DNA of 64,000 nt from a plasmid. Shown in pieces: positions 5,518 through 64,000 of this stretch; position 1 is the first letter of the stretch; every line of letters starts with the position of its first letter. Below the pieces are notes generated by a model, which saw only the letters and a program-made list of their open reading frames with translations, was not told the DNA's origin and made no database searches. Made by a program: the position numbers and the translations under genes. Where the stretch lies: the sequence record NZ_CP139428.1; one strand, 5' to 3'.

Positions 5518-5958
5518 ATGAAAAATGCATTCAATCTGGAAACACTGACGGCGATGAGCGCCGACGAACTGGAGCAGTACCGCGATCGGGGCAGAGAGTA
5601 CCGGATGATGCTCAACTGCGCGGTGCTGGGGCAACTGGCGGTGCCGGAAGGCTGGCGCGTGGTGGCGGAAGAGGGCTGTGAGTTCTGCGGGCGCGTGCCG
5701 GTGGTGTGCCGGATAAGCCCGGCAGGGGATGAGGCGACGGCGCTCTATTTGTGCAGTGCGGGCGCGGAGGTGCCGAACTGGTCAATGACGCTGCCGTTTG
5801 ACGGCGGTCAGTCGCTGGCGTGGCTGTACCTGGATGAGTATTACACCCCGGCCACGGTCAACCGGGTGCTGCATACCGTGGCGGGCTATTACCAGCTGGG
5901 GTTCTGGCGGCCGGAAAAGTTGGCGGCGGCGCTGCGGATGGGAGGGCATTGCCTGTGA
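5518..5958 (+). CDS. Hypothetical protein
   Basis: ORF co-oriented with the leading-region genes. No motif recognised. Confidence 0.4.
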   Translation: MKNAFNLETLTAMSADELEQYRDRGREYRMMLNCAVLGQLAVPEGWRVVAEEGCEFCGRVPVVCRISPAGDEATALYLCSAGAEVPNWSMTLPFDGGQSLAWLYLDEYYTPATVNRVLHTVAGYYQLGFWRPEKLAAALRMGGHCL

Positions 5959-6680
5959 TCCCCCATCATCTCGCATTGGTGCCGTGGCACCCGTACCGGC
6001 AGGCCGTCTGGCAAGCCATCGCACAGGTCGAAGCCCGCCGTGAAGCTGGCAGGCGGTTATCCGCCTACCCGTATGCCACGGCGTTTTTCCGCCAGTTAAC
6101 CGGGCGGCTCACAATTTCAGCCAAGGACATCCGCATGATAGACGTGACCTACCGGCCCGGCGATCGCCGCCGCGCCACGCGCAAGGAAGACTATATCGAC
6201 GCGCTCGACATCCTGATTGCCAGCCGGGGGGAGCACTGTTATTCCCCGTTGCCGGGCGACACCCGTGACACGCTGTTCCCGGAAGTGAACCGCCGCCGCC
6301 GACAGCGCTTCGAACACCGGCTGACGATGAAACACACCCGTCAGGCGCGCATCGATGCCACACTCCGGCGGCACAAGCGGCGACGTTACCAGGTGCGGCT
6401 GGCGCAGGCGGAAGTCGAGCTGGCGTTCATCACGCCGGGCGAGCTTGACCGCTGGGTACGGCGTGCGCAGCAGCAGGGACTTGCCGAGGATGATTTGAGC
6501 GGGCTGGTGATGGCGTGGACGGCGCGGTTTCCGTGCCTTGCCGAATTGGATCGTTATCTTTGGGCTGACATGCCGTTCTGGGAGGCGCGTCTTCAGGTCA
6601 GTCTGATCAGCGCGGAGTTGTCCGCTGAAGCGCATATCGATAACGCGGCGCGGCTGCCGAATCGCCTGGTACGCCGCTAA
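5949..6680 (+). CDS. Hypothetical protein, basic and Arg-rich in the centre
   Basis: ORF co-oriented and overlaps the previous stop. Confidence 0.4.
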   Translation: MPVIPHHLALVPWHPYRQAVWQAIAQVEARREAGRRLSAYPYATAFFRQLTGRLTISAKDIRMIDVTYRPGDRRRATRKEDYIDALDILIASRGEHCYSPLPGDTRDTLFPEVNRRRRQRFEHRLTMKHTRQARIDATLRRHKRRRYQVRLAQAEVELAFITPGELDRWVRRAQQQGLAEDDLSGLVMAWTARFPCLAELDRYLWADMPFWEARLQVSLISAELSAEAHIDNAARLPNRLVRR

Positions 6681-12449: not shown

Positions 12450-12860
12450 TAAAATCCCTAGCCCTGGTGAAAATCTAGCCTTTTCGGGATCTCGAGTCAA
12501 CAAATTCGCGCTCTTTGGGGTAACAGCATCACACCCCACGCAAAATTGTATTTTTCAGAATTATTATTTTAAAACAGTTGGTTACGCGCTTTAAGTTGTT
12601 GTTGTATTTTTACATGGCAAGAGATTAGAGTTGTAAAGGACTCTAACTAGAGTCGTTATTCAAGTTTATACACAACTCTACATAGAGTTATCACTAAATT
12701 TCAAATAGATAAACAGACTCGACCCTAGAGGCGAGTTGTATTTTTTTGCTTTTATAGTTATCATTAGACTCGCAATTAGAGTCGGATTTGATTCGTGCAT
12801 GCCAACTCAAAATACATACAGATTATCTGTCAGCTAATAATGTCATGGAGTAAAAATTAT
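12450..12860 (-). other. Origin of transfer (oriT) of F type. The nic site is on the minus strand near 12530, and transfer proceeds toward lower coordinates.
   Basis: The reverse complement of 12519-12548 reads TTTGCGTGGGGTGT/GATGCT. This matches the F nic consensus TTTGCGTGGGGTGT/GGTGCT. The region is AT-rich and is followed by TraM operators. Confidence 0.7.
12620..12790. promoter_or_regulatory. TraM binding sites: four GACTC-N6-GAGTC inverted repeats upstream of traM
   Basis: GACTCtaactaGAGTC, aACTCtacataGAGTt, GACTCgaccctagagGCGAGT and GACTCgcaattaGAGTC. Confidence 0.55.
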
Positions 12861-13259
12861 ATGGCAAGAATTCAAGCATATGTCAGCAAGGAGGCGGTTG
12901 AAAAGATTCATGCAATTGTTGAACAGCGCCGTCAAGAAGGGGCTGCTGAAACTGAAGTAAGTACATCTAGTGTTATTTCTATGCTTCTTGAACTCGGTCT
13001 CAGAGTCTATGAGGCACAGATGGAAAGAAAAGATGACCCTTTTAATCAGACGGAGTTTAACAAAACTCTTTTGGAAAACGTATTGAAAACTCAACTTGCA
13101 ATGGCAAAGGTTCTTGGTGCAAGTACTCTAGCTCCACATGTTGCAGATAAACCAAAACTTAATAACTATCAGCAGATCATTTCAGAAATAAACGAATCTG
13201 TTAATGATAAGTTAGAGAGATTTTTTATTGGTGTTGATTCAGATAGTACTAACGAATGA
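12861..13259 (+). CDS. traM: TraM relaxosome accessory protein
   Basis: MARIQAYVSKEAVEKIHAIVEQRRQEG ... SMLLELGLRVYEAQMERK aligns closely with F TraM MAKVNLYISNDAYEKINAIIEKRRQEG ... SMLLELGLRVHEAQMERK. Confidence 0.85.
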   Translation: MARIQAYVSKEAVEKIHAIVEQRRQEGAAETEVSTSSVISMLLELGLRVYEAQMERKDDPFNQTEFNKTLLENVLKTQLAMAKVLGASTLAPHVADKPKLNNYQQIISEINESVNDKLERFFIGVDSDSTNE

Positions 13260-13325
13260 ACTATCATCAATAACTTAATTACCTCATGCCTCCTTTGGGA
13301 GTGAGGTAATTATGCTTGCTGATTT

Positions 13326-13688
13326 CTATTTGTTTAGACAGTCAATTATTTCAATTGCTAGTCGTTTGGCATCTTCAACTTTTTTAGCTAATTTTTTCTC
13401 TTCTATTACTGAACTGTAGAATTTATTTTTGGAGGGATTTGTTCTGTTTCTATGCATTTCAAGAAGATCTGTCGCTAAATCATCATCTATCGTATAGAAG
13501 TAATACTCTGGGTAATCCAATAAGTTGGCTATTTTTACTACTAAGCTGAAAGGTGGTTCTGTTCTGCCGACTTCGTAACTTGACAGTCTTGAGCTTGAAT
13601 TGGCCCCTTGTATACCTACAAGTTCAGCTAACTGCTCCTGTGTATAACCACTTGATATTCTGGCATCTTTTAGTCTTTTTGGTATCAT
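13326..13688 (-). CDS. HTH XRE-family transcriptional regulator (Cro/cI-like)
   Basis: GYTQEQLAELVGIQGANSSSRLSSYEVGRTEPP helix-turn-helix. RBS AAGGAGG lies before the ATG at 13688. Divergent from the next regulator. Confidence 0.65.
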   Translation of the reverse strand: MIPKRLKDARISSGYTQEQLAELVGIQGANSSSRLSSYEVGRTEPPFSLVVKIANLLDYPEYYFYTIDDDLATDLLEMHRNRTNPSKNKFYSSVIEEKKLAKKVEDAKRLAIEIIDCLNK

Positions 13689-13859
13689 GGTCCCCTCCTT
13701 TATTATGATTTTACATAGTGTTAGGAGGTGAAAAATCCACATAATCAAGAACTGTTGATAATGTGTAGTTCATGCTGTGCTATGTTTATTTCATCATCTG
13801 ATGTCTTTCATGTATCATCTTTTGACTAACCATCACTATTATTTGATCATGAGTATGCC

Positions 13860-14456
13860 ATGAATAATACCGAGATAATAAAAAAGAATATAAATTACCT
13901 TCTTTCTTCGAGAAAGGAAACACAAGTTTCTTTGAGTGATGGTGCCGGTGTTAATCGAACTACTATATATAAGATCCTTGAAGGTAGGGTAGAGCGCGTT
14001 CAAGAAAATACTCTTCGAAAAGTAGCCGGATTCTTTGGTGTTTCATTTAAAGAAATTCAATCTGTTGATTTACAAGAAAAGGAGTTATCTAATAAGTTAG
14101 TAACCATTGATGGTAACATGAACCCGTTGGCGGTTCCGATTATTAAAGATACAACTATACTCTCAGCAGTAAATGCAAAAATTGGACGGTTAGTTATGTC
14201 GTCACCTATAACTTATTTCTTCGGTGAAGGTCCTAATGTAGTTGGAATACTTCTAACAAAAGAGATAAAAGGATACTATAATAAAGGTGATGTGATCATC
14301 GTTCGCCGTGAGGCTATCATTCATGAGGCAAATGTTCTTGTGGTTACTTCAAGCAAAAGTTTAAAGGTGATTGATGGTAGTTCGGCTCATTTAGTTGCTG
14401 AGGATGTTGTTGGTACAATAATCGAGGAAAGGTATGGAAGCGAATATAAAATATAA
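13860..14456 (+). CDS. LexA/cI-like repressor: N-terminal XRE HTH plus C-terminal S24 peptidase-like domain
   Basis: N-terminal HTH (VNRTTIYKILEG). The C-terminal VMSSP ... KGDVIIVRREAIIHEANVLVVTSSKSLKVI block resembles the LexA/cI autocleavage domain. Confidence 0.55.
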   Translation: MNNTEIIKKNINYLLSSRKETQVSLSDGAGVNRTTIYKILEGRVERVQENTLRKVAGFFGVSFKEIQSVDLQEKELSNKLVTIDGNMNPLAVPIIKDTTILSAVNAKIGRLVMSSPITYFFGEGPNVVGILLTKEIKGYYNKGDVIIVRREAIIHEANVLVVTSSKSLKVIDGSSAHLVAEDVVGTIIEERYGSEYKI

Positions 14457-15291
14457 GCTAATTGGATTTGATATCCTCAATGGAAAAGCTAACGTTATGG
14501 TGTTGAATACTGGGCGGGTTATGTCAATGCCATACGAAAGACTACTATCTTCAGAGGTGATTGATGATTTTAACGCTAGAGAAGTGTCGGCGGTTTGTCG
14601 AAAAATATATAGCTCTGGTGAAAGTGTTAAAACTGAATATGAGTTTAAAGATAGAAATGAAAAGCAGTGGTTAACTTATGTTGCTTTTTGTTTGGTTATT
14701 AGTGTTTGTTATATATTTAGTAATATAGCTGCAGTCAAACCAGTTCACATACAATACTTTGATCTTATCATTACGCCTGGTACTTTTGTTTACCCGTTTA
14801 CATTCTTAGTAGTAGATCTTCTGAATGAATTTTATGGATTTAGGCTGGCAAGAAAAGCCATCTATATGTGTGTTGTTGCTAATGCGGCAATATTAGGGTT
14901 GCTTTATGTTTCTCTGAAGTTACCTGTTATACCTGAATGGATATTCAATGGTCCATATAATAGCCTTATTAATCAAATACAATCAACATTTCTTGCATCA
15001 ACTATAGCATTTCTTACCTCCGAGCTGGCTAATTCATATGTGCTTTGTAAAATCAAAGAACTGACTAATTCTCGCTACTTATATATAAGGATTCTTTCCA
15101 GTATATTCGTGGCCTCTGTTATAGATAGTGTTGTCTTTTGTTTCATAGCTTTCAGTGGTTTGATGACAAACGAACAAATAATAGGAATTATCGCCGTTCA
15201 AGTAATAATTAAGTTAGCGTATGCACTTGTTAATGTTTTTCCTGCGTATGGAGCAAGGTATCTATTTAATAAATACCTCACTCAAGAATAA
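14434..15291 (+). CDS. yhhQ: YhhQ-family (DUF165) queuosine-precursor transporter with an extra N-terminal domain of about 85 aa
   Basis: YPFTFLVVDLLNEFYGFRLARKAIY and the C-terminal VQVIIKLAYALVNVFPAYG segment align with E. coli YhhQ FPFIFLATDLTVRIFGAPLARRIIF ... VDYCFKVLISIVFFLPMYG. Confidence 0.65.
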   Translation: MEANIKYKLIGFDILNGKANVMVLNTGRVMSMPYERLLSSEVIDDFNAREVSAVCRKIYSSGESVKTEYEFKDRNEKQWLTYVAFCLVISVCYIFSNIAAVKPVHIQYFDLIITPGTFVYPFTFLVVDLLNEFYGFRLARKAIYMCVVANAAILGLLYVSLKLPVIPEWIFNGPYNSLINQIQSTFLASTIAFLTSELANSYVLCKIKELTNSRYLYIRILSSIFVASVIDSVVFCFIAFSGLMTNEQIIGIIAVQVIIKLAYALVNVFPAYGARYLFNKYLTQE

Positions 15292-15302
15292 TATTTAATT
15301 AG

Positions 15303-16004
15303 TCATAAGGCCTGTTTTTTTTGCAGGCTTTTTTTTATTTCTTCTTTGTTTTGTACGTATTCATTAAACCCTCTCAATCGTAGAAAACATGCGTCGCATT
15401 TCCCACACCCAAAACTTTTAACTCCATTGTAACAAGTTAAAGTTTCATCTCTGATGAGTTCCAAACATCCCATATTGTCTGCTAATGCCCATGTTTCAGC
15501 TTTGTTTAATGACATTAGTGGCGTTACAAACTTGATATCTCTTCCTATTCCTAAACTTACTGCGTGGTTTAACGCTTTCACAAAAACATCACGGCAGTCC
15601 GGGTATCCTGAAAAATCAGTCTCACAAACACCTGTTATTACGTCTTTCGCATTTACTTGAAATGCATAGATGGCGGCAAGGGTAAGGAATACGATGTTTC
15701 TGCCAGGAACAAACGTTGATGGTATTCCATCCGAATCAGCATTTTTGTGCTCGGGCACTTCAATCTCATTTCTAGTCAAACTACTTATTGCTAACTCATT
15801 GATTACATTAACATCTAGAATTTTATGTGAGCTTACGTTTAGCTTCTTTGCAAGTTGCTCCGCTATTTTAATTTCTTCACTGTGGCGCTGGCCGTAGTCG
15901 AAGGTTAAACAGTGCACGGAGTCATACTCAGCGAGAGCCTTCACTAAGCATGTAGTTGAATCTTGACCTCCACTGAATACAACTACTGCTGTTTTTCCTG
16001 ACAT
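15303..16004 (-). CDS. queC: 7-cyano-7-deazaguanine synthase QueC
   Basis: [16 protein letters not shown]-loop and C-terminal CxxC zinc motifs, 233 aa. Confidence 0.9.
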
Positions 16005-16387
16005 ATAAACTCCTTATTATTCAATTCGATGAAATTAAAAAGCATCATATGGTGCGTTTTGTGTTGCTTTGTTGTTGGATGTATTCTACAGTTTCATTGT
16101 TTTAGTTCAATCAGTCAAACCATTGGTAGCTGTAGAAGGTCATCTCGTAGAACAAATACATCACACTCATACCGCGAGATTAAGCTTTAATCTAATGATT
16201 TTATTGTTTTTTTTTGTGATTTGACTTCAGGTGGTTACATCAAAAACAGCTTATTTTTTATCAAAATATCTTTAATTTTCATAATGTAAGGGGGTGCTTC
16301 CAACTGTTCAAATAATCTCATTTCATACTAAGCCAAGGATGTTTCTCTATTGCATCCAAAGATTTACCTCATTCAAGGATAATTTAA

Positions 16388-16756
16388 ATGAATGCTTCAT
16401 TAAGCGCTCAGGGGCCTTCTGTTGCCCAACGTCAGGGATTTTCACTTCGTAAGCTGTTTTCTCGGCAACGCGTCGTGAATTTCCTCAAGGTGATCCTGCC
16501 GTTTGCCGTACTGGCCTCGTTCTTCCCGGAAGTGGCTCTCGCCGCCGGTGCTGGCGGTAAGGATATGCTGAAATCCGGCGATGCCGATGTGAAGGCAACG
16601 GCAGGCTCCGGTTCCACCATGGTCAAATGGATCGTCCTGGTCGAAGTGTTGGTTGGTGCCGTGATGTATATGGCCACCAAAAACCTTAAATACCTCTCCG
16701 GCTTCATCGTGGTCTCTGTTCTGATCGCGGTGGGGATGAAAGTCGCCGGGTATTAA
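16388..16756 (+). CDS. traA: F-type propilin TraA
   Basis: Near-identical C-terminal half to F TraA: [28 protein letters not shown] versus [28 protein letters not shown]. Confidence 0.9.
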
Positions 16757-52365: not shown

Positions 52366-52443
52366 TTACAGCGTGTGAATGGCGTGGCGCACCACGCCGA
52401 AGATCACGGTTTCGATGTCGTCGCCGAGCGGAATGGGCGCAAA
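52366..52443 (-). pseudogene. umuD: umuD 3' fragment (C-terminal 25 codons), separated from its 5' part by a transposon
   Basis: FAPIPLGDDIETVIFGVVRHAIHTL matches the UmuD C-terminus. It joins in frame with the fragment at 62887-63194 through the 5-bp duplication. Confidence 0.8.
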
Positions 52444-52632
52444 GGGGGAACCGCAGAATTCGGAAAAAATCGTACGCTAAGCTAACGGTGTTCTCGTGAC
52501 AGCTCTTTGACTAGGCTTTCTAAGGCCATTCTGATAGCCCTGACTTCCTGAAAAGCCATGGCTAAAATTTGTGCGGCTAAAAGGGATAACCGATGGTAAA
52601 GTAAGTTATCCCTGTCGAGATACTGAAAAGCG

Positions 52633-53688
52633 TTATCCTCGTTTTTCCCAAAACTGTTTTGCCAGTTCGCTCAGAGCGCTAGTTAACTGAGCGACAGATT
52701 TCGCACTTTGCAAATTATTCTGCCCGGTCTGTACATTGGTATCAGCAGCATCGCGTATATTGATAATACTGCGGTTTATGTCTTCACTTACTGCTCCCTG
52801 CTGCTCGACCGCAGTCGCTATTTGCGCGTTCATGTCGGTAATTTCGTTAACGCGTTGGCCAATTCCATCAAGAGCTGTAGCTGCTTCCTCTGCGTGAGCT
52901 ACACTCGTGTGCGCTTGCCGACTACTTTGCTCCATGACTGTAACAGCGGATTGCGCTCGCTCTTGTAGAGCGCTGATCATGCTTTGAATATCCGTTGTCG
53001 ATTGCTGTGTGCGAGCAGCAAGACTGCGAACCTCATCGGCGACAACAGCAAAACCACGCCCCTGCTCACCAGCACGCGCGGCCTCAATTGCTGCGTTGAG
53101 TGCCAACAAATTCGTTTGCTCGGCGATCCCTCGTATAACGTCAAGAACTTTTGATATCTCGTTACTTTGACCTTCAAGCTCATGAATAACCTGAGTGGCT
53201 TGCCTAATTTCACCTTCAAGGGCAGTGATTGACTGGCTTGTGTGGGCTACCAGACGCTGGCCAGATGCCGTCTCAGTGTCTGCTCTTCCGGCCGCATCTG
53301 CAGCATGCTGTGCATTGCTCGCAACCTCTTGAATGCTTGCCACCATTTGGTTTACTGCCGTTGCTATTTGATCTGTCTCTGCCTGCTGCTCAACTGTAAG
53401 TACATTGCTTGACTCAATATCCTTTAGTAGGCCTCGGGTGTGTTCGCTAAGCCGATTTGATGCATCACCTATGCGACCTACTATGGCGCCTGTTTCAGCT
53501 TGCATCATTCGTAAAGCAAACTCTATTTGGCCAAACTCATCGGTGCGCCCAGTGTAGAGGGATTGACTTAATGGGTTATTGGAAATATTCCTGGCTCTTT
53601 CAACCAGTCTTCCAAGAGGAGAGAGAATAGCCAAAACACTAACAGAGCTTAAGCTTCCTGACATTAAAGTGGCTAACACCTAGATTCT
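52633..53688 (-). pseudogene. mcp: Methyl-accepting chemotaxis protein gene of the transposon, 3' part (HAMP plus signalling domain)
   Basis: MCP signalling domain [31 protein letters not shown]. Ends at the ISEcp1 left inverted repeat. Confidence 0.8.
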
Positions 53689-55334
53689 ACGTCAGTACTT
53701 CAAAAAGCATAATCAAAGCCTTGATAAATATGCATTCCTTCGAAATTCAGCTTTCACCCATTGGGTGAAAGAAAAGTGCTCAAAAATATGTTAAATTATC
53801 AGCTTTTATGACTCGATATATGGTAAAATAATAGTAAGAAAAGTAGTAAAAAGGGGTTCTAATTATGATTAATAAAATTGATTTCAAAGCTAAGAATCTA
53901 ACATCAAATGCAGGTCTTTTTCTGCTCCTTGAGAATGCAAAAAGCAATGGGATTTTTGATTTTATTGAAAATGACCTCGTATTTGATAATGACTCAACAA
54001 ATAAAATCAAGATGAATCATATAAAGACCATGCTCTGCGGTCACTTCATTGGCATTGATAAGTTAGAACGTCTAAAGCTACTTCAAAATGATCCCCTCGT
54101 CAACGAGTTTGATATTTCCGTAAAAGAACCTGAAACAGTGTCACGGTTTCTAGGAAACTTCAACTTCAAGACAACCCAAATGTTTAGAGACATTAATTTT
54201 AAAGTCTTTAAAAAACTGCTCACTAAAAGTAAATTGACATCCATTACGATTGATATTGATAGTAGTGTAATTAACGTAGAAGGTCATCAAGAAGGTGCGT
54301 CAAAAGGATATAATCCTAAGAAACTGGGAAACCGATGCTACAATATCCAATTTGCATTTTGCGACGAATTAAAAGCATATGTTACCGGATTTGTAAGAAG
54401 TGGCAATACTTACACTGCAAACGGTGCTGCGGAAATGATCAAAGAAATTGTTGCTAACATCAAATCAGACGATTTAGAAATTTTATTTCGAATGGATAGT
54501 GGCTACTTTGATGAAAAAATTATCGAAACGATAGAATCTCTTGGATGCAAATATTTAATTAAAGCCAAAAGTTATTCTACACTCACCTCACAAGCAACGA
54601 ATTCATCAATTGTATTCGTTAAAGGAGAAGAAGGTAGAGAAACTACAGAACTGTATACAAAATTAGTTAAATGGGAAAAAGACAGAAGATTTGTCGTATC
54701 TCGCGTACTGAAACCAGAAAAAGAAAGAGCACAATTATCACTTTTAGAAGGTTCCGAATACGACTACTTTTTCTTTGTAACAAATACTACCTTGCTTTCT
54801 GAAAAAGTAGTTATATACTATGAAAAGCGTGGTAATGCTGAAAACTATATCAAAGAAGCCAAATACGACATGGCGGTGGGTCATCTCTTGCTAAAGTCAT
54901 TTTGGGCGAATGAAGCCGTGTTTCAAATGATGATGCTTTCATATAACCTATTTTTGTTGTTCAAGTTTGATTCCTTGGACTCTTCAGAATACAGACAGCA
55001 AATAAAGACCTTTCGTTTGAAGTATGTATTTCTTGCAGCAAAAATAATCAAAACCGCAAGATATGTAATCATGAAGTTGTCGGAAAACTATCCGTACAAG
55101 GGAGTGTATGAAAAATGTCTGGTATAATAAGAATATCATCAATAAAATTGAGTGTTGCTCTGTGGATAACTTGCAGAGTTTATTAAGTATCATTGCAGCA
55201 AAGATGAAATCAATGATTTATCAAAAATGATTGAAAGGTGGTTGTAAATAATGTTACAATGTGTGAGAAGCAGTCTAAATTCTTCGTGAAATAGTGATTT
55301 TTGAAGCTAATAAAAAACACACGTGGAATTTAGG
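53689..55334 (+). mobile_element. ISEcp1 (IS1380 family)
   Basis: Left inverted repeat CCTAGATTCTACGTCAGTA at 53689 and right inverted repeat ending ACGTGGAATTTAGG at 55334. The transposase ORF lies inside, and the GC is low. Confidence 0.85.
53865..55127 (+). CDS. tnpA: ISEcp1 transposase
   Basis: 420-aa IS1380-family transposase starting MINKIDFKAKNLTSNAGL. Confidence 0.9.
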   Translation: MINKIDFKAKNLTSNAGLFLLLENAKSNGIFDFIENDLVFDNDSTNKIKMNHIKTMLCGHFIGIDKLERLKLLQNDPLVNEFDISVKEPETVSRFLGNFNFKTTQMFRDINFKVFKKLLTKSKLTSITIDIDSSVINVEGHQEGASKGYNPKKLGNRCYNIQFAFCDELKAYVTGFVRSGNTYTANGAAEMIKEIVANIKSDDLEILFRMDSGYFDEKIIETIESLGCKYLIKAKSYSTLTSQATNSSIVFVKGEEGRETTELYTKLVKWEKDRRFVVSRVLKPEKERAQLSLLEGSEYDYFFFVTNTTLLSEKVVIYYEKRGNAENYIKEAKYDMAVGHLLLKSFWANEAVFQMMMLSYNLFLLFKFDSLDSSEYRQQIKTFRLKYVFLAAKIIKTARYVIMKLSENYPYKGVYEKCLV

Positions 55335-55358
55335 GAATACTGATGTAACACGGATTGA

Positions 55359-56252
<894 letters not shown>

Positions 56253-56254
56253 CT

Positions 56255-57311
56255 GGTTTTGTTGAATAAATCGAACTTTTGCTGAGTTGAAGGATCAGAT
56301 CACGTATCTTCCCGACAACGCAGACCGTTCCGTGGCAAAGCAAAAGTTCAAAATCACCAACTGGCCCACCTACAATAAAGCCCTCATCAACCGTGGCTCC
56401 ATAACTTTCTGGCTGGATGATGAAGCTATTCAGGCCTGGTATGAGTCAGCAACACCTTCTTCACGAGGCAGACCTCAGCGCTATTCTGACCTTGCCATCA
56501 CGACTGTGCTGGTCATTAAACGCGTATTCAGGCTGACCCTGCGCGCTGCGCAGGGCTTTATTGATTCCATTTTTTCTCTGATGAACGTTCCGCTACGCTG
56601 CCCGGATTACAGCTGTGTCAGCAGGCGGGCAAAGTCGGTTAATATCAGTTTCAAAACGCCCACCCGGGGTGAAATCGCACACCTGGTAATTGATTCCACC
56701 GGGCTGAAGGTCTTCGGTGAAGGCGAGTGGAAAGTCAAAAAGCATGGCCAGGAACGCCGTCGTATATGGCGTAAGCTGCATCTGGCAGTTGACAGTAAAA
56801 CACATGAAATCATCTGCGCTGACCTGTCGCTGAACAACGTTACGGACTCAGAGGCCTTCCCCGGGTTAATCCGGCAAACCCACCGGAAAATCAGGTCAGC
56901 CGCCGCCGATGGAGCTTACGATACCCGGCTCTGTCACGATGAACTGCGGCGTAAGAAAATCAGCGCGCTTATCCCGCCCCGAAAAGGTGCGGGTTACTGG
57001 CCCGGTGAATATGCAGACCGTAACCGTGCAGTGGCTAATCAGCGAATGACCGGGAGTAATGCGCGGTGGAAATGGACAACAGATTACAACCGTCGCTCGA
57101 TAGCGGAAACGGCGATGTACCGGGTAAAACAGCTGTTCGGGGGTTCACTGACGCTGCGTGACTACGATGGTCAGGTTGCGGAGGCTATGGCCCTGGTACG
57201 AGCGCTGAACAAAATGACGAAAGCAGGTATGCCTGAAAGCGTGCGTATTGCCTGAAAACACAACCCGCTACGGGGGAGACTTACCCGAAATCTGATTTAT
57301 TCAACAAAGCC
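56255..57311 (+). mobile_element. IS903 (IS5 family), 1057 bp
   Basis: Terminal 18-bp inverted repeats GGTTTTGTTGAATAAATC at 56255 and GATTTATTCAACAAAGCC ending at 57311. Contains the transposase ORF 56287-57255. Confidence 0.85.
56287..57255 (+). CDS. tnpA: IS903 transposase (start may be internal to this ORF)
   Basis: DDE transposase of the IS5/IS903 family, bounded by the IS903 inverted repeats. Confidence 0.8.
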   Translation: MKDQITYLPDNADRSVAKQKFKITNWPTYNKALINRGSITFWLDDEAIQAWYESATPSSRGRPQRYSDLAITTVLVIKRVFRLTLRAAQGFIDSIFSLMNVPLRCPDYSCVSRRAKSVNISFKTPTRGEIAHLVIDSTGLKVFGEGEWKVKKHGQERRRIWRKLHLAVDSKTHEIICADLSLNNVTDSEAFPGLIRQTHRKIRSAAADGAYDTRLCHDELRRKKISALIPPRKGAGYWPGEYADRNRAVANQRMTGSNARWKWTTDYNRRSIAETAMYRVKQLFGGSLTLRDYDGQVAEAMALVRALNKMTKAGMPESVRIA

Positions 57312-58409
57312 ACGCGCTGGACACACCACGATGACAGCGGTTTTATCCCTTACGCCATCACCACCGGCCTTGATTACGAGGCGATGACCGAACAGCGCAA
57401 AGGCTATGAGAACTTTGTTTATCAGAACGGCGTTTACGATCTCGGCACCAAAGGTGATATGCGACGTAACGAACGTAACCTGATGTGGAACCTCGATCCC
57501 TACATTCAAACGCACTGGCAGCTCACCTCAGCCCTGGGGCTGGACGCCGGGGCGCGCTATAGCTCGGTATGGTTTGATTCCAACGATCGTTATGTTGTAG
57601 GTAAAAATGGTGATGATAGCGGCGAAGCGAGCTATCACAAGTGGCTTCCGGCGGCAGCGCTGAAGTATGCCATGACGCCGCAGTGGAACGTTTACCTCTC
57701 TGCCGGGAGGGGATTTGAAACGCCGACCATTAACGAGCTGTCCTATCGTCCCGATGGTCAGTCCGGGCTTAACTTTGCTCTGCAACCGGCCACTAACACC
57801 ACCGTTGAAGCAGGCAGTAAATGGCAGGTGGGCACCGGGATGGCGAGCCTGAGCGTCTTCAATACGGACACGAAAAATGAAATTGTCGTTGCCGCCAGCG
57901 ACAATGGCCGTACGTCCTATCAGAACGCGGGCAAGACGCGCCGCCGCGGGGTCGAACTGGGATGGGATCAGCAATTTGCGCCCGCCTGGCGCGCCAAACT
58001 GGCGTGGACGCTGCTGGATGCGACCTACCGTGAAAACGCCGGCGATGCTATTCAGAGCGGCAATCGGATCCCGGGGATTGCACGTAATAGCGCCTATGCC
58101 TCCTTTGGCTGGGTGCCGGAAGAGGGATGGTACGCTGGCGCTGAAGTCCGCTATATGAGCGATATTCAGGTCAACGATGCCAATAGCGAGCAGGCTCCAG
58201 CCTATACGGTGACGGCACTGAATACCGGCTATAAATATGTGCTAGATAACTGGACCGTCGACCTCTATACGCGCGTTGATAACCTGTTTGATAAGCGCTA
58301 CGTCGGCTCTGTTATCGTCAACGAGAGCAACGGACGCTATTATGAACCGGCGCCGGGCCGTAACTATGGCGTTGGGCTATCGGTCAGCTATCAGTTTGAT
58401 TCGCTGTAA
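57312..58409 (+). pseudogene. iroN: Truncated TonB-dependent siderophore receptor gene (iroN 3' fragment)
   Basis: C-terminal beta-barrel of a TonB-dependent receptor ending YQFDSL. It begins abruptly at the IS903 end. This is the classic ISEcp1-blaCTX-M-14-IS903-delta-iroN arrangement. Confidence 0.7.
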
Positions 58410-59013
58410 CAATACGGCTGCCGGAGAGTGCTATTGAGGTGAGGCTCCGGCAGCGGGTAAAGGCGTTGATTCCTGGTAACAATAAGCTGCTTATTGATGT
58501 ATCAGTAAGCATGCCGGCAGCCATTGCGCTTGATATAATACTACCCCATATGAGCAAGAGTATTTTCACGGAAAAGCTAGCAGCCAATTTCGGCCTCGCG
58601 GCCTTCCCGCTTCTCAATTGAGCATATAATTTTTCCGCAGCCAAAACCTGCTCAGGTTCAGGCTTGGTCCTTACAGACTGGTATTCAACAATCGAACCAT
58701 TCTTAGCTATTGGCGTTACATAAGCACTTACCCAATAGTGGTCGCCATTTTTACAGCGATTTTTTACTAGCCCCATCCATGAGCGGCCAGATTTTAATGT
58801 ACTCCACATATGCTCAAATGCAGCAGGCGGCATATCTGGGTGTCTTACGATGTTGTGAGGCTGGCCTAATAGTTCTTCCTCAGTGAAACCACTGATTTTA
58901 ATGAAGTCAGGATTAACGTACGTGATATGGCTTTGAGGGGAGGTAGTCGAAAGAATATTGGCATCTTTTGGGAGTTCTAAGTTTCGACCCGTCACTGGTA
59001 AATTCTGGCGCAT
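58407..59013 (-). pseudogene. mcp: mcp 5' part (PAS sensor domain plus transmembrane region), separated from its 3' part by the ISEcp1 transposition unit
   Basis: N-terminal PAS domain (ITYVNPDFIKISGFTEEELLGQPHNIVRHPDMP). TSD TAACA at 53684-53688 and 58407-58411 brackets the inserted unit 53689-58406. Confidence 0.75.
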
Positions 59014-59322
59014 AAGAACCTCAAGGGTTGGCTGTTTTATTTTATTGTTTTCGGCATTAAGCCCAATTTCTTGAGCGTTACGATAAAGCTAGCATGGAAA
59101 CGATAGGTGCAAGCAAGTTAAGGGTTGCATCGCGCATGTCAATCTAGGCTATACCCTAACTTGATGTCAGGCAGGGCCGCGCCGCTTCGTCAGAATAGAG
59201 TCTGCTTTCCCATTTTTTGACACATGCCCGCGAAGGTTATAGATTTCAGCCTGACAGAAATGGGCTTTGAGGCACAACGGAACAGAAAGTGCACTTAAGC
59301 CGCCTTCAACCAAGGAGACATC
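59014..59322. promoter_or_regulatory. res (resolution) site and tnpR promoter region of the transposon
   Basis: Position between mcp and tnpR, as in Tn1721/Tn21-subgroup elements. Confidence 0.45.
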
Positions 59323-59883
59323 GTGCAGGGGCACCGCATCGGCTACGTCCGGGTCAGCAGCTTTGACCAGAACCCGGAACGCCAGCTGGAACAAACCCAG
59401 GTGAGCAAGGTGTTCACCGACAAGGCATCGGGCAAGGACACCCAGCGCCCCCAGCTCGAAGCGCTGCTGAGCTTCGTCCGCGAAGGCGATACAGTGGTGG
59501 TGCACAGCATGGATCGGCTGGCCCGCAACCTCGATGACCTGCGTCGCTTGGTACAGAAGCTGACTCAGCGCGGCGTGCGCATCGAGTTCCTGAAGGAGGG
59601 CCTGGTGTTCACTGGCGAGGACTCGCCGATGGCCAACCTGATGCTGTCGGTGATGGGGGCCTTCGCTGAGTTCGAGCGCGCCCTGATCCGCGAGCGGCAG
59701 CGTGAGGGCATCGCCTTGGCCAAGCAGCGTGGCGCGTACCGGGGCCGCAAGAAAGCCCTGTCCGATGAGCAGGCTGCTACCCTGCGGCAGCGAGCGACGG
59801 CCGGCGAGCCCAAGGCGCAGCTTGCCCGCGAGTTCAACATCAGCCGGGAAACCCTCTACCAGTACCTCCGCACGGACGACTGA
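59323..59883 (+). CDS. tnpR: TnpR serine resolvase
   Basis: MQGHRIGYVRVSSFDQNPERQ catalytic-serine region and a C-terminal HTH, 186 aa. Confidence 0.95.
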   Translation: MQGHRIGYVRVSSFDQNPERQLEQTQVSKVFTDKASGKDTQRPQLEALLSFVREGDTVVVHSMDRLARNLDDLRRLVQKLTQRGVRIEFLKEGLVFTGEDSPMANLMLSVMGAFAEFERALIRERQREGIALAKQRGAYRGRKKALSDEQAATLRQRATAGEPKAQLAREFNISRETLYQYLRTDD

Positions 59884-59886
59884 CAC

Positions 59887-62853
59887 ATGCCGCGTCGCTT
59901 GATCCTCTCGGCCACGGAGCGGGACACCCTGCTTGCGCTGCCGGAAAGCCAGGATGACCTGATCCGCTACTACACCTTCAACGACTCCGACCTGTCGCTG
60001 ATCCGCCAGCGACGCGGCGACGCCAACCGCCTCGGCTTCGCCGTGCAGCTCTGCCTGCTGCGCTACCCCGGTTACGCGCTGGGAACCGACAGCGAGCTGC
60101 CCGAGCCGGTCATCCTGTGGGTGGCGAAGCAAGTCCAGGCCGAGCCGGCGAGCTGGGCAAAGTACGGCGAGCGCGACGTGACCCGTCGCGAGCATGCCCA
60201 GGAACTGCGCACCTACCTGCAACTGGCCCCGTTCGGCCTGTCCGACTTCCGCGCCCTGGTGCGCGAGCTAACCGAGCTGGCCCAGCAGACCGACAAAGGC
60301 TTGCTGCTGGCCGGTCAGGCCCTGGAGAGCCTACGGCAGAAACGACGCATCCTGCCGGCGCTGAGCGTGATTGACCGGGCCTGCTCGGAAGCCATTGCGC
60401 GAGCCAATCGGCGGGTCTACCGCGCCCTGGTCGAACCACTCACGGACTCGCATCGGGCCAAGCTGGACGAGCTGTTGAAGCTCAAGGCCGGCAGCAGCAT
60501 CACCTGGTTGACCTGGCTGCGCCAGGCACCGCTGAAACCCAACTCTCGGCACATGCTGGAACACATCGAGCGGCTGAAGACATTTCAGTTGGTGGACTTG
60601 CCCGAAGGCCTGGGCCGGCACATCCACCAGAACCGCCTGCTCAAGCTGGCCCGCGAGGGTGGGCAGATGACGCCCAAAGACCTCGGTAAGTTCGAGCCGC
60701 AGCGCCGCTACGCGACCCTGGCCGCCGTGGTGCTGGAGAGCACCGCGACCGTGATCGATGAGCTGGTCGATCTGCATGACCGCATCCTGGTCAAGCTGTT
60801 CAGCGGCGCGAAGCACAAGCATCAGCAGCAGTTCCAGAAGCAGGGCAAGGCGATCAACGACAAGGTGCGCCTGTACTCCAGGATCGGCCAGGCGCTGCTG
60901 GAAGCGAAGGAAAGCGGCAGCGACCCCTATGCCGCCATCGAGGCGGTGATTCCCTGGGACGAGTTCACCGAGAGCGTCAGCGAGGCCGAGCTGCTGGCCC
61001 GGCCGGAAGGCTTCGACCACCTGCACCTGGTCGGCGAGAACTTCGCCACCCTGCGCCGTTACACGCCGGCCTTGCTGGAGGTGCTGGAACTGCGCGCCGC
61101 GCCGGCCGCGCAAGGCGTGCTGGCAGCCGTGCAGACCCTGCGTGAGATGAACGCCGACAACCTGCGCAAGGTGCCGGCCGATGCACCCACGGCCTTCATC
61201 AAGCCGCGCTGGAAGCCGCTGGTGATCACCCCGGAAGGCCTCGACCGGAAATTCTACGAAATCTGCGCCCTGTCCGAGCTGAAGAACGCCCTGCGCTCCG
61301 GCGACATCTGGGTCAAGGGCTCGCGGCAGTTCCGCGACTTCGACGACTACCTGCTGCCGGCCGAGAAGTTCGCCGCACTCAAGCGCGAGCAGGCCCTGCC
61401 CCTGGCGATCAACCCGAACAGCGACCAGTACCTGGAAGAGCGTTTGCAGCTGCTGGACGAGCAGTTGGCCACCGTCACCCGCCTGGCCAAGGACAACGAG
61501 CTGCCCGATGCCATCCTCACCGAGTCAGGGCTGAAAATCACCCCGCTGGATGCGGCGGTGCCGGATCGGGCGCAGGCGCTGATCGACCAAACCAGCCAGT
61601 TACTGCCGCGCATCAAGATCACCGAACTGCTGATGGACGTGGACGACTGGACGGGCTTCAGCCGCCACTTCACCCACTTGAAGGACGGGGCCGAGGCCAA
61701 AGACAGGACGTTGCTGCTGTCCGCAATCCTCGGTGATGCGATCAACCTCGGGCTGACCAAGATGGCCGAGTCGAGCCCCGGCCTGACCTACGCCAAGCTG
61801 TCCTGGCTGCAAGCCTGGCACATCCGCGACGAAACCTATTCGGCGGCCTTGGCCGAGCTGGTCAACCACCAGTATCGCCACGCCTTTGCCGCCCACTGGG
61901 GCGACGGCACGACCTCATCCTCCGATGGCCAGCGCTTCCGCGCGGGTGGCCGGGGCGAGAGCACCGGGCACGTCAACCCGAAGTACGGTAGCGAGCCGGG
62001 ACGGCTGTTCTATACCCATATCTCCGACCAGTACGCGCCGTTCAGCACCCGCGTGGTGAATGTCGGCGTCCGCGATTCCACCTATGTGCTCGACGGCCTG
62101 CTGTACCACGAGTCCGACCTGCGGATCGAGGAGCACTACACCGACACGGCCGGCTTCACCGATCACGTCTTTGCCCTGATGCACCTGCTAGGCTTCCGCT
62201 TCGCGCCGCGCATCCGCGACCTCGGCGAAACCAAGCTGTACGTGCCGCAGGGCGTGCAAGCCTACCCGACGTTGCGCCCGCTGATCGGCGGCACCCTGAA
62301 CATCAAGCACGTGCGTGCCCACTGGGACGACATCCTGCGCCTGGCCAGCTCGATCAAGCAGGGCACCGTCACCGCCTCGCTGATGCTGCGCAAGCTCGGC
62401 AGCTACCCGCGCCAGAACGGACTGGCCGTGGCCCTGCGCGAGCTGGGCCGGATCGAGCGCACGCTGTTCATCCTGGACTGGCTGCAAAGTGTTGAACTGC
62501 GCCGCCGCGTGCATGCCGGCCTGAACAAAGGTGAGGCGCGCAACTCGCTGGCCAGGGCGGTGTTCTTCAACCGCCTTGGGGAAATCAGGGATCGGAGCTT
62601 CGAGCAGCAGCGCTACCGGGCCAGCGGCCTCAACCTGGTGACGGCGGCTATCGTGCTGTGGAACACGGTGTACCTGGAACGCGCCACCCAGGGGTTGGTC
62701 GAGGCCGGCAAGCCGGTGGACGGCGAGCTGCTGCAATTCCTGTCGCCGCTGGGCTGGGAGCACATCAACCTAACCGGCGATTACGTCTGGCGGCAGAGCC
62801 GCAGACTGGAAGACGGGAAGTTTCGGCCCTTACGGATGCCCGGAAAACCTTAG
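59887..62853 (+). CDS. tnpA: Tn3-family TnpA transposase
   Basis: 988 aa, ending just inside the right inverted repeat. Confidence 0.95.
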
Positions 62854-62886
62854 CGTACGATTTTTTCCGAATTCTGCGGGCTCCCC

Positions 62887-63194
62887 GCAAAGGCCGGATT
62901 GGCCGGCATCAGCATCGGCCGGGGCAGCAGCTGCAGGCGCTTGCAGGTGAACTCGCCGTCGACGGTGGCGATGACGATGTCGCCGTGCTGCGCCCGGTAG
63001 AAACACTCCACGACCAGCAGGTCGCCGTCGAGGATACCTGCGTCCTGCATCGATTGCCCCTCGGCGCGCACCAGGTAGGTGCTTTCCGGGTGGCGGATGC
63101 AGATGTCGTCCAACGACAGGCGCTGCTCGAGGTAGTCCTGCGCCGGCGACGGAAACCCGCAGGGCACGCCGGCGTCATAGAAGCGTACCGGCAT
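62887..63194 (-). pseudogene. umuD: umuD 5' part (N-terminal about 102 codons, including the LexA-like cleavage region)
   Basis: [26 protein letters not shown] ... GDIVIATVDGEFTCKRLQ matches UmuD and MucA. Interrupted by the transposon inverted repeat. Confidence 0.8.
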
Positions 63195-64000
63195 CACACG
63201 GCCTCCGGCGCGCTCTGCCAGGCATCGTCATCCGGGGGCGTGTCCGCGTCGGCTGAAGCCGCGGCCGGCAGCGCCGCCTGCAGGTAGTGCGTGCGCAGCT
63301 GCGCGGTCAATGTGGCCACCACGTCGGGACGGTCACGCAGCCAGCCGGCGGCCTTCTCGCGCCCCTGGCCGATTTTCTCCCCCTGATACTCGTACCAGGC
63401 GCCGGTCTTGAGGATATATTTGGCGTCGACGGCCAGATCCAGCACTTCGCCCTCGAGAAAGATGCCGGCGCCGAACAGCAGCCGGAACTGCGCCTGGCGG
63501 AACGGCGGCGAGACCTTGTTCTTGACCACTTTCACCTTGGTATCCCGCCCGATGATGGTCTCCCCTTCCTTGACGTTGCCGGCGCCGCGCACGTCGAGAC
63601 GCACCGAAGCGTAGAACTTGAGGGCGTTGCCGCCGGCGGTGGTTTCGGGGTTGCCGAACATCACGCCGATCTTCATGCGCAGCTGGTTGATGAAGATCAC
63701 CACCGTGCGGGTGGTGTTGATGCTGCCCTTCAGCTTTCGCATCGCCTGGCTCATCATGCGGGCCTGCAGCCCCATCTGGGCGTCGCCGATCTCCCCTTCC
63801 AGCTCGTTTTTCGGCACCAGGGCGGCGACGGAATCAACCACCACCACGCCGACGGCGCCGGAACGCACCAGGGCGTCACAGATTTCCAGCGCCTGCTCGC
63901 CGGTGTCGGGCTGGGAGATGAGGAGTTCACCGATATCGACGCCCAGCTGCTGCGCGTAACGCGGATCGAGCGCGTGCTCGGCATCGATAAAGGCGCACTG
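63194..64000 (-). CDS. recA: RecA recombinase homolog. The 5' end lies beyond the window, and the stop TGA overlaps the umuD ATG (ATGA).
   Basis: [60 protein letters not shown] ... [15 protein letters not shown] is collinear with E. coli RecA core and C-terminal regions. Confidence 0.85.

Follow-up and report, generated by a model that had tools for sequence, protein, structure and literature searches.

The recA-umuD junction

The stretch of DNA analysed here (the window, 64,000 nucleotides of sequence record NZ_CP139428.1) belongs to a Serratia-type, conjugative, F-like plasmid, and ends within a recA gene that is followed on the minus strand by umuD and, at a distance, by umuC. The features of this locus are the following:

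63194-64000, minus strand: 3' part of recA, 268 codons (807 nt) with the TGA stop, running into the window edge at 64000
63192-63206, minus strand: coupling junction, with GGAGG at 63206-63202, a 7-nt spacer and the umuD ATG
62887-63194, minus strand: 5' fragment of umuD, codons 1-103, with the Cys12-Gly13 cleavage site, Ser48 and Lys85
62850-62886, minus strand: foreign tail of UmuD, 11 codons from the transposon inverted repeat, with a stop at 62850
52366-52438, minus strand: 3' fragment of umuD, codons 104-126 and TAA
51037-52311, minus strand: umuC, 424 aa, an intact open reading frame 10.4 kb from the recA promoter side

The stop codon of recA (TGA, 63196-63194) and the start codon of umuD (ATG, 63194-63192) overlap by 1 nt, an A common to both, in the sequence TGATG, and a Shine-Dalgarno motif, GGAGG, is read directly from the sequence 7 nt 5' of the umuD ATG. 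The first-pass annotation had placed this overlap at exactly the right coordinates, but its label 'ATGA' was wrong; with an alternative umuD start, GTG at 63197, the overlap would read GTGA. The 20-nt junction is unchanged in the six related plasmids that were fetched (L001-L005 and L022), and the stop/start overlap is conserved beyond them, being invariant as TGATG in the operon type found here (type 1) and present as ATGA in a second type of Serratia operon (type 2, see below). The conserved overlap suggests that recA and umuD are translationally coupled, the coupling itself being a prediction.

The window lacks the promoter and the first 101 codons of recA, among them those for Walker A. 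The window copy of UmuD scores 125.6 bits against NF007621 (cutoff 110), covering profile positions 2-95 of 115, and its C12-G13, S48, and K85 align with C24-G25, S60, and K97 of the E. coli protein (chains 8gmt_B and 1umu). UmuC scores 667.4 bits against NF002955 (cutoff 431) over residues 1-422 of 422, and is 98.6% identical to the UmuC of the UMH5 plasmid.

A blaCTX-M transposon within umuD

A Tn1721-like transposon carrying blaCTX-M is inserted in umuD after codon 103. The element and its contents are organized as follows:

52444-62886: Tn1721/Tn1722-like transposon of the Tn3 family, 10,443 bp
52444-52481 and 62849-62886: 38-bp terminal inverted repeats, 35 of 38 bases matching (0 expected by chance)
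62887-62891: target-site duplication TTTGC, copy 1
52439-52443: target-site duplication TTTGC, copy 2
59323-59883, plus strand: tnpR, with serine-recombinase matches in NCBIfam below cutoff only
59887-62853, plus strand: tnpA (NF033527, 1289 bits)
58384-59013 and 52633-53679, minus strand: mcp, a methyl-accepting chemotaxis gene in two pieces, split by the insert
53865-55127: IS1380-family (ISEcp1-like) transposase (Pfam/NCBIfam)
55377-56252: blaCTX-M (621 bits, cutoff 570)
56287-57255: IS5-family transposase (Pfam/NCBIfam)
57384-58409: truncated gene for a TonB-dependent receptor (Pfam/NCBIfam)

The terminal repeat at 62886-62849 reads GGGGAGCCCGCAGAATTCGGAAAAAATCGTACGCTAAG, and the element displays a Tn3-type transposase, inverted repeats of about 38 bp, and a 5-bp duplication, as expected of the Tn3 family. 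The segment 52444-62886 thus represents an ESBL transposon carried by an F-like plasmid of the Serratia type. The junction between umuD and the transposon was found in none of the PLSDB matches listed, among which a full-length match would have ranked first.

A second transposon of the Tn3 family lies in the umuD gene of Serratia liquefaciens plasmid p2-125 (L022, NZ_CP033895.1), at about 5545-5555. The two insertions, on two plasmids, are approximately 3 bp apart (...GGCCTTTGC|GGGG in the window and ...GGCCTTT|AGGGG in S. liquefaciens) and involve different transposons, with transposases of 988 aa and about 1015 aa. This site in umuD may be a hot spot for insertion.

Homology of umuD to an intact relative ends at 62887, and the product of the interrupted gene consists of 103 native and 11 foreign residues, the last 23 of 126 being absent. 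The missing part corresponds approximately to residues 116-139 of E. coli UmuD (alignment to 8gmt_B and 1umu), and a complete C-terminal catalytic/dimerization domain is absent from the window copy, a loss that would be expected to deprive UmuD of function. Excision of the transposon together with one TTTGC copy restores the UmuD frame, as seen in a reconstruction translated to codon 122. In addition, the 52-nt spacer between umuD and umuC holds no operator or promoter signal, so that umuC has lost its connection to the recA promoter.

These observations bear upon the proposal, made in the first-pass annotation, that the plasmid carries an intact recA-umuD-umuC operon serving as a self-sufficient mutagenesis/SOS module. 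The junction and the gene identities on which the proposal was built are correct, and umuC is indeed an intact open reading frame elsewhere in the window. However, umuD is split by 10.4 kb of transposon, whose inverted repeats are clean and whose insertion duplicated 5 bp, UmuD has lost 23 of its 126 residues, and umuC is separated from the recA promoter, all of which makes an intact module on this particular plasmid very improbable. The three genes are contiguous in intact relatives, but not in the window. Since the blaCTX-M transposon landed in umuD, the Pol V arm is probably inactive in NZ_CP139428.1; recA is probably still expressed.

Intact operons in related plasmids

The 1114-bp region at 62887-64000 aligns with about 60 PLSDB records at 95% identity or more, nearly all of them from Serratia, and in 55 PLSDB records 80% or more of the complete operon is present. 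The operon was absent from all 5,426 complete E. coli genomes searched. A scan for UmuD in species-representative genomes returned only an unrelated match of 37% identity, the exact-peptide patterns employed being too strict to show species range. In annotated relatives, the intact order is recA (369 aa), umuD (126 aa, with a 1-nt overlap), and, after about 52 nt, umuC (424 aa), and such an operon is present in the plasmids UMH5, SCBI, pSM22, and SM39, as well as in that of the type strain ATCC 13880. F-like Serratia plasmids of the pSM22 type (MOBF/MPF_F) are probably the typical carriers of recA-umuD-umuC, and the window would hold a remnant copy of the operon. Values of dN/dS within the family are low for all three genes (0.07-0.11 for recA, 0.06-0.11 for umuD, and 0.05-0.17 for umuC), indicating purifying selection.

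Two further arrangements provide information on the age of the association. The type 2 operon, found on contigs of S. ureilytica, encodes a RecA of 385 aa, an S24 peptidase whose gene overlaps recA in an ATGA, and a Y-family polymerase; its proteins are 70% (RecA), 69% (UmuD), and 76% (UmuC) identical to those of type 1. The parallel divergence of the three proteins between the two types points to an old, co-inherited unit. On a Pantoea plasmid the order is umuD-umuC-recA, and RecA is 71% identical to that of type 1 while UmuD and UmuC reach only 53-58%; because the gene order differs and the UmuDC pair is far more distant, linkage of RecA to umuDC probably arose more than once.

The insertion seen in the window is not the only case in which the operon has been damaged. 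In at least four further plasmids umuC or umuD is disrupted and recA is intact, the gene being cut by insertions or rearrangements at about 9615 in L002, at about 14146 in L005, in AP028496.1, and at 6143-6250 in L011. A recA feature is not listed in the records of some other relatives, and recA pseudogenes may exist.

Predicted operator and promoter

In all six relatives fetched, a box with the sequence TACTGG-N8-ACAGT(A/G) is located 46 nt 5' of the recA ATG, in a region that falls beyond the window in NZ_CP139428.1. The box is LexA-like, with one mismatch to the CTGT-N8-ACAG core (a CTGG half-site), and an exact CTGT-N8-ACAG was found near recA in neither L001 nor L002. It overlaps a promoter-like site, TTGTCA-16-TATTAT, whose predicted -10 element it directly adjoins. 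Compared with the operator of E. coli recA, TACTGTATGAGCATACAGTA, the plasmid box matches at 16 of 20 bases. The type 2 operon carries a CTGT-N8-CCAG box, and the Pantoea plasmid has a perfect LexA box before umuD. In the Serratia operons, umuD and umuC possess no operator of their own, the sole operator being that located before recA, and control of recA-umuD-umuC by LexA is likely, through an operator that is itself predicted.

Identity and lineage of the plasmid RecA

The RecA fragment encoded in the window scores 380.5 bits against the RecA equivalog TIGR02012 (cutoff 325.3). At the DNA level, all 807 nt agree with the recA carried by a plasmid of S. marcescens LY1 (CP053919.1; 100% identity), and the full-length product of that gene, identical over the common stretch, reaches 510 bits. 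An alignment with E. coli RecA, to which the plasmid protein is 67% identical, reveals that Walker A and B, E96, loops L1 and L2, F217, M197, K248, and K250 are conserved, Walker A being read from relatives only since it falls outside the window in NZ_CP139428.1. Differences include D112G, N113E, and R243K, and the 112-117 region displays G112, E113, and S117.

Two other readings of the gene have to be considered: it could be an inactive paralog of the ImuA type, as the first-pass annotation had itself cautioned, or it could represent a recent capture of a host chromosomal recA. The first is contradicted by a score of 39.1 bits against the ImuA model NF033429 (cutoff 150), by the conservation of all ATPase and DNA-binding residues, and by the presence of the RecA_C domain, all of which identify the gene as a true recA. 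Capture of a chromosomal gene does take place, as illustrated by an IncHI2 Enterobacter plasmid carrying a pncC-recA-recX-alaS block. Nevertheless, chromosomal RecAs are only about 63-68% identical to the plasmid protein among the 120 matches listed, neither recX nor pncC flanks the plasmid recA in relatives, and the dN/dS of the gene is about 0.1. Taken as a whole, an inactive paralog or a recent capture is so improbable that it can practically be set aside.

The closest proteins, among those same 120 matches, are non-housekeeping RecAs from mobile elements of Enterobacterales, 361-385 aa in length and 64-77% identical; like the plasmid RecA, they are extended at the N-terminus and lack one residue in 'ALG-GGLP'. 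Sister paralogs are found in an ICE-like island of Salmonella, in a C. koseri prophage beside dinI, and in Klebsiella/Raoultella prophages beside a gene for a LexA_DNA_bind protein. In the prophages (L008, 5001-6379; L010 and L014, 5001-6795), RecA is followed by DinI or by a small protein and a LexA_DNA_bind protein, and in the Salmonella island (L006, 5001-10852) by DoxD, a UvrD-like helicase, and a TraI_2 relaxase. The pairing of RecA with a client or modulator of the RecA filament may thus be a recurring mobile module.

Plasmid recA genes had been regarded as uncommon, yet 379 PLSDB records carry one, so that they are not very rare; what is rare is the linkage to umuDC. Other plasmid copies lack an adjacent umuDC: those of Pseudomonas megaplasmids are solitary, that of the Enterobacter IncHI2 plasmid is part of the captured chromosomal block, and that of Providencia is a remnant.

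The carrier plasmid

The GC content of the recA, umuD, and umuC genes is 0.66-0.67, which is indeed higher than that of the tra region (0.598), but the difference is modest, and traI itself has a value of 0.64. The further suggestion that the genes were acquired from a high-GC proteobacterium was abandoned, given that the nearest relatives are mobile-element RecAs of Enterobacterales, at most 77% identical, and that all close relatives are enterobacterial mobile-element genes.

An island of low GC content (about 35%) at about 13300-16050 occupies the expected place of traJ/traY, between traM (12795-13259) and traA (16388-16756), and encodes two HTH regulators, a Vut_1 transporter-like protein, and QueC. 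The protein encoded at 13860-14456 (198 aa), previously described as a LexA-like S24 regulator, does not deserve that name, since Pfam detects solely an HTH domain and no S24 domain. At the start of the window, in the vicinity of a ParA-like gene and an integrase fragment, the minus strand encodes a protein with a PFIN (plasmid fertility inhibition factor) domain (669-1331). The leading region (5518-6680, plus strand) encodes PsiB (145 bits, cutoff 100) and PsiA, on a plasmid that has a recA of its own. PsiB is an inhibitor of RecA.

A proposed Pol V module with its own RecA

The evidence described above can be brought together in a scheme for the ancestral unit, in which a single promoter with a LexA-box-like operator would drive recA, umuD, and umuC. 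Upon DNA damage, relief of LexA repression would lead to the joint production of plasmid RecA, UmuD, and UmuC. Filaments of the plasmid RecA would then promote self-cleavage of UmuD at Cys12-Gly13, and the same protein would also enter the active polymerase, UmuD'2C-RecA-ATP, as its RecA subunit. In this manner, translesion synthesis and mutagenesis could take place independently of how well the RecA of the host fits the plasmid Pol V. We consider it likely, on the basis of gene order, conserved residues, and the predicted operator, that recA-umuD-umuC is such an SOS-controlled Pol V module with its own RecA, which in this plasmid has been broken by the transposon in umuD.

Work on the partnership between RecA and Pol V makes this mechanism a reasonable one. 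RecA residues 112-117 form the surface that activates Pol V, and a D112R N113R variant is specifically defective (PMC4374754); Pol V variants of A. baumannii require their own RecA when placed in E. coli (PMC13062779); and the activity of the Rum polymerase varies with the RecA supplied, the elements that carry rumAB being, according to the authors, without a cognate recA (PMC9262582). The plasmid RecA differs from that of E. coli at positions 112 and 113, but D112G and N113E are no proof of co-adaptation, since both positions vary among RecAs generally.

A different explanation is that the plasmid RecA serves the plasmid itself, and that umuDC merely shares its SOS promoter, with no specific partnership between RecA and Pol V. 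After entry by conjugation, RecA alone could serve in recombinational repair or in the filling of gaps; it could also tune the host SOS response, and might, for instance, be a RecA resistant to the PsiB of the plasmid. The existence of paralogs in prophages and in an ICE-like island that lack umuDC (the Salmonella island, the C. koseri prophage with dinI, and the Klebsiella/Raoultella prophages with LexA_DNA_bind) suggests that RecA may act at the level of the element, independently of Pol V. The loss of umuC or umuD by insertion in several relatives that have kept recA likewise hints at a use of RecA by itself, and the window encodes PsiB (5518-5958) and PsiA. This explanation, however, is at odds with the fact that recA still overlaps umuD in both operon types, in spite of a divergence to about 70% identity, with the probably independent linkage of RecA to umuDC on the Pantoea plasmid, with the lack of a separate operator for umuD and umuC in Serratia, and with the location of the RecA substitutions on the surface that activates Pol V. 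We therefore regard a RecA with no specific tie to Pol V as unlikely, and favor the module in which RecA and Pol V function together.

A bolder version of the module can also be envisaged, in which, on Serratia plasmids, a distinct mobile-element RecA lineage of Enterobacterales and its Pol V partner would have evolved together into an orthogonal mutasome. The altered 112-113 surface would activate the plasmid UmuD'2C better than does the RecA of the host, and might also allow the protein to escape the plasmid's own PsiB. This proposal is tentative, and we are inclined to doubt it. If it were true, the plasmid could silence the host SOS response on entry, yet keep a private pathway for damage tolerance and mutagenesis.

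Comparison with known systems

The plasmid operon has much in common with umuDC of E. coli, mucAB of pKM101, impCAB of TP110, and rumAB of the R391/SXT ICEs, all of which associate an S24 self-cleaving subunit with a Y-family polymerase. Carriage by conjugative elements is also common to the mobile Pol V operons and to the plasmid recA-umuDC, as is a LexA-type operator, a predicted one in the latter, and impCAB, too, has a third, upstream gene. The far boundary of the leading region is a frequent location of mobile Pol V genes (PMC11541004). None of these four operons, however, encodes a RecA, whereas the plasmid operon begins with recA and has its only predicted operator in front of that gene; its umuD overlaps recA, and not umuC. 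The N-terminal arm of UmuD that precedes the Cys-Gly site is also shorter, with 12 residues in type 1 (63159-63194, minus strand) and 14 in type 2 (L012, 6155-6200), as opposed to 24 in E. coli. In the E. coli protein, this arm segment carries protease-targeting signals.

Combinations of a RecA-fold protein and a translesion polymerase have been described in other settings. The imuA-imuB-dnaE2 'mutagenesis cassette' joins a RecA-fold protein and a Y-family protein in one LexA-controlled unit involved in damage-induced mutagenesis (PMC6511836); ImuA, however, has neither Walker motifs nor a C-terminal domain, and ImuB is devoid of catalytic activity, whereas the plasmid operon encodes a complete RecA and a UmuC recognized by the UmuC subfamily model. 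In Deinococcus deserti, an additional plasmid RecA occurs alongside plasmid-borne translesion polymerases, and the authors speculated that this RecA regulates or activates them (PMC2669436). The D. deserti genes, by contrast, are not united in an operon, their polymerases belong to the ImuY/DnaE2 type, control is exerted through a radiation-response motif in place of a LexA box, and the replicons are large, non-conjugative, and belong to an unrelated phylum. The recA of Pseudomonas IncP-2 megaplasmids and the recA-dinI pairs of enterobacterial prophages are members of the same wider set of non-housekeeping mobile RecAs, but have no adjacent umuDC; the prophage proteins resemble the plasmid RecA in their N-terminal extension and in the one-residue deletion in 'ALG-GGLP'.

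The individual genes are already annotated in public records, and what appears to be undescribed is the arrangement of the operon and the lineage of RecA. In agreement with the first-pass annotation, which named no such coupling at the well-studied umuDC/mucAB/rumAB loci, we found no paper in the open-access literature that describes either a recA-umuDC operon or the mobile-element RecA lineage of Enterobacterales, a search whose restriction to open access means that absence is no proof.

Mobile homologs of Pol V raise mutation rates and speed the development of drug resistance. Whether such a polymerase can make use of the RecA of any new host is a question that current work addresses (PMC9262582, PMC13062779). 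A conserved plasmid operon that joins RecA to UmuDC would be a natural counter-example to the notion that elements of this kind lack a cognate recA, and offers a direct test system for the specificity between RecA and Pol V. The operon also forms part of a broader group of RecA paralogs that Enterobacterales carry on phages, ICEs, and plasmids, for which we found no published study.
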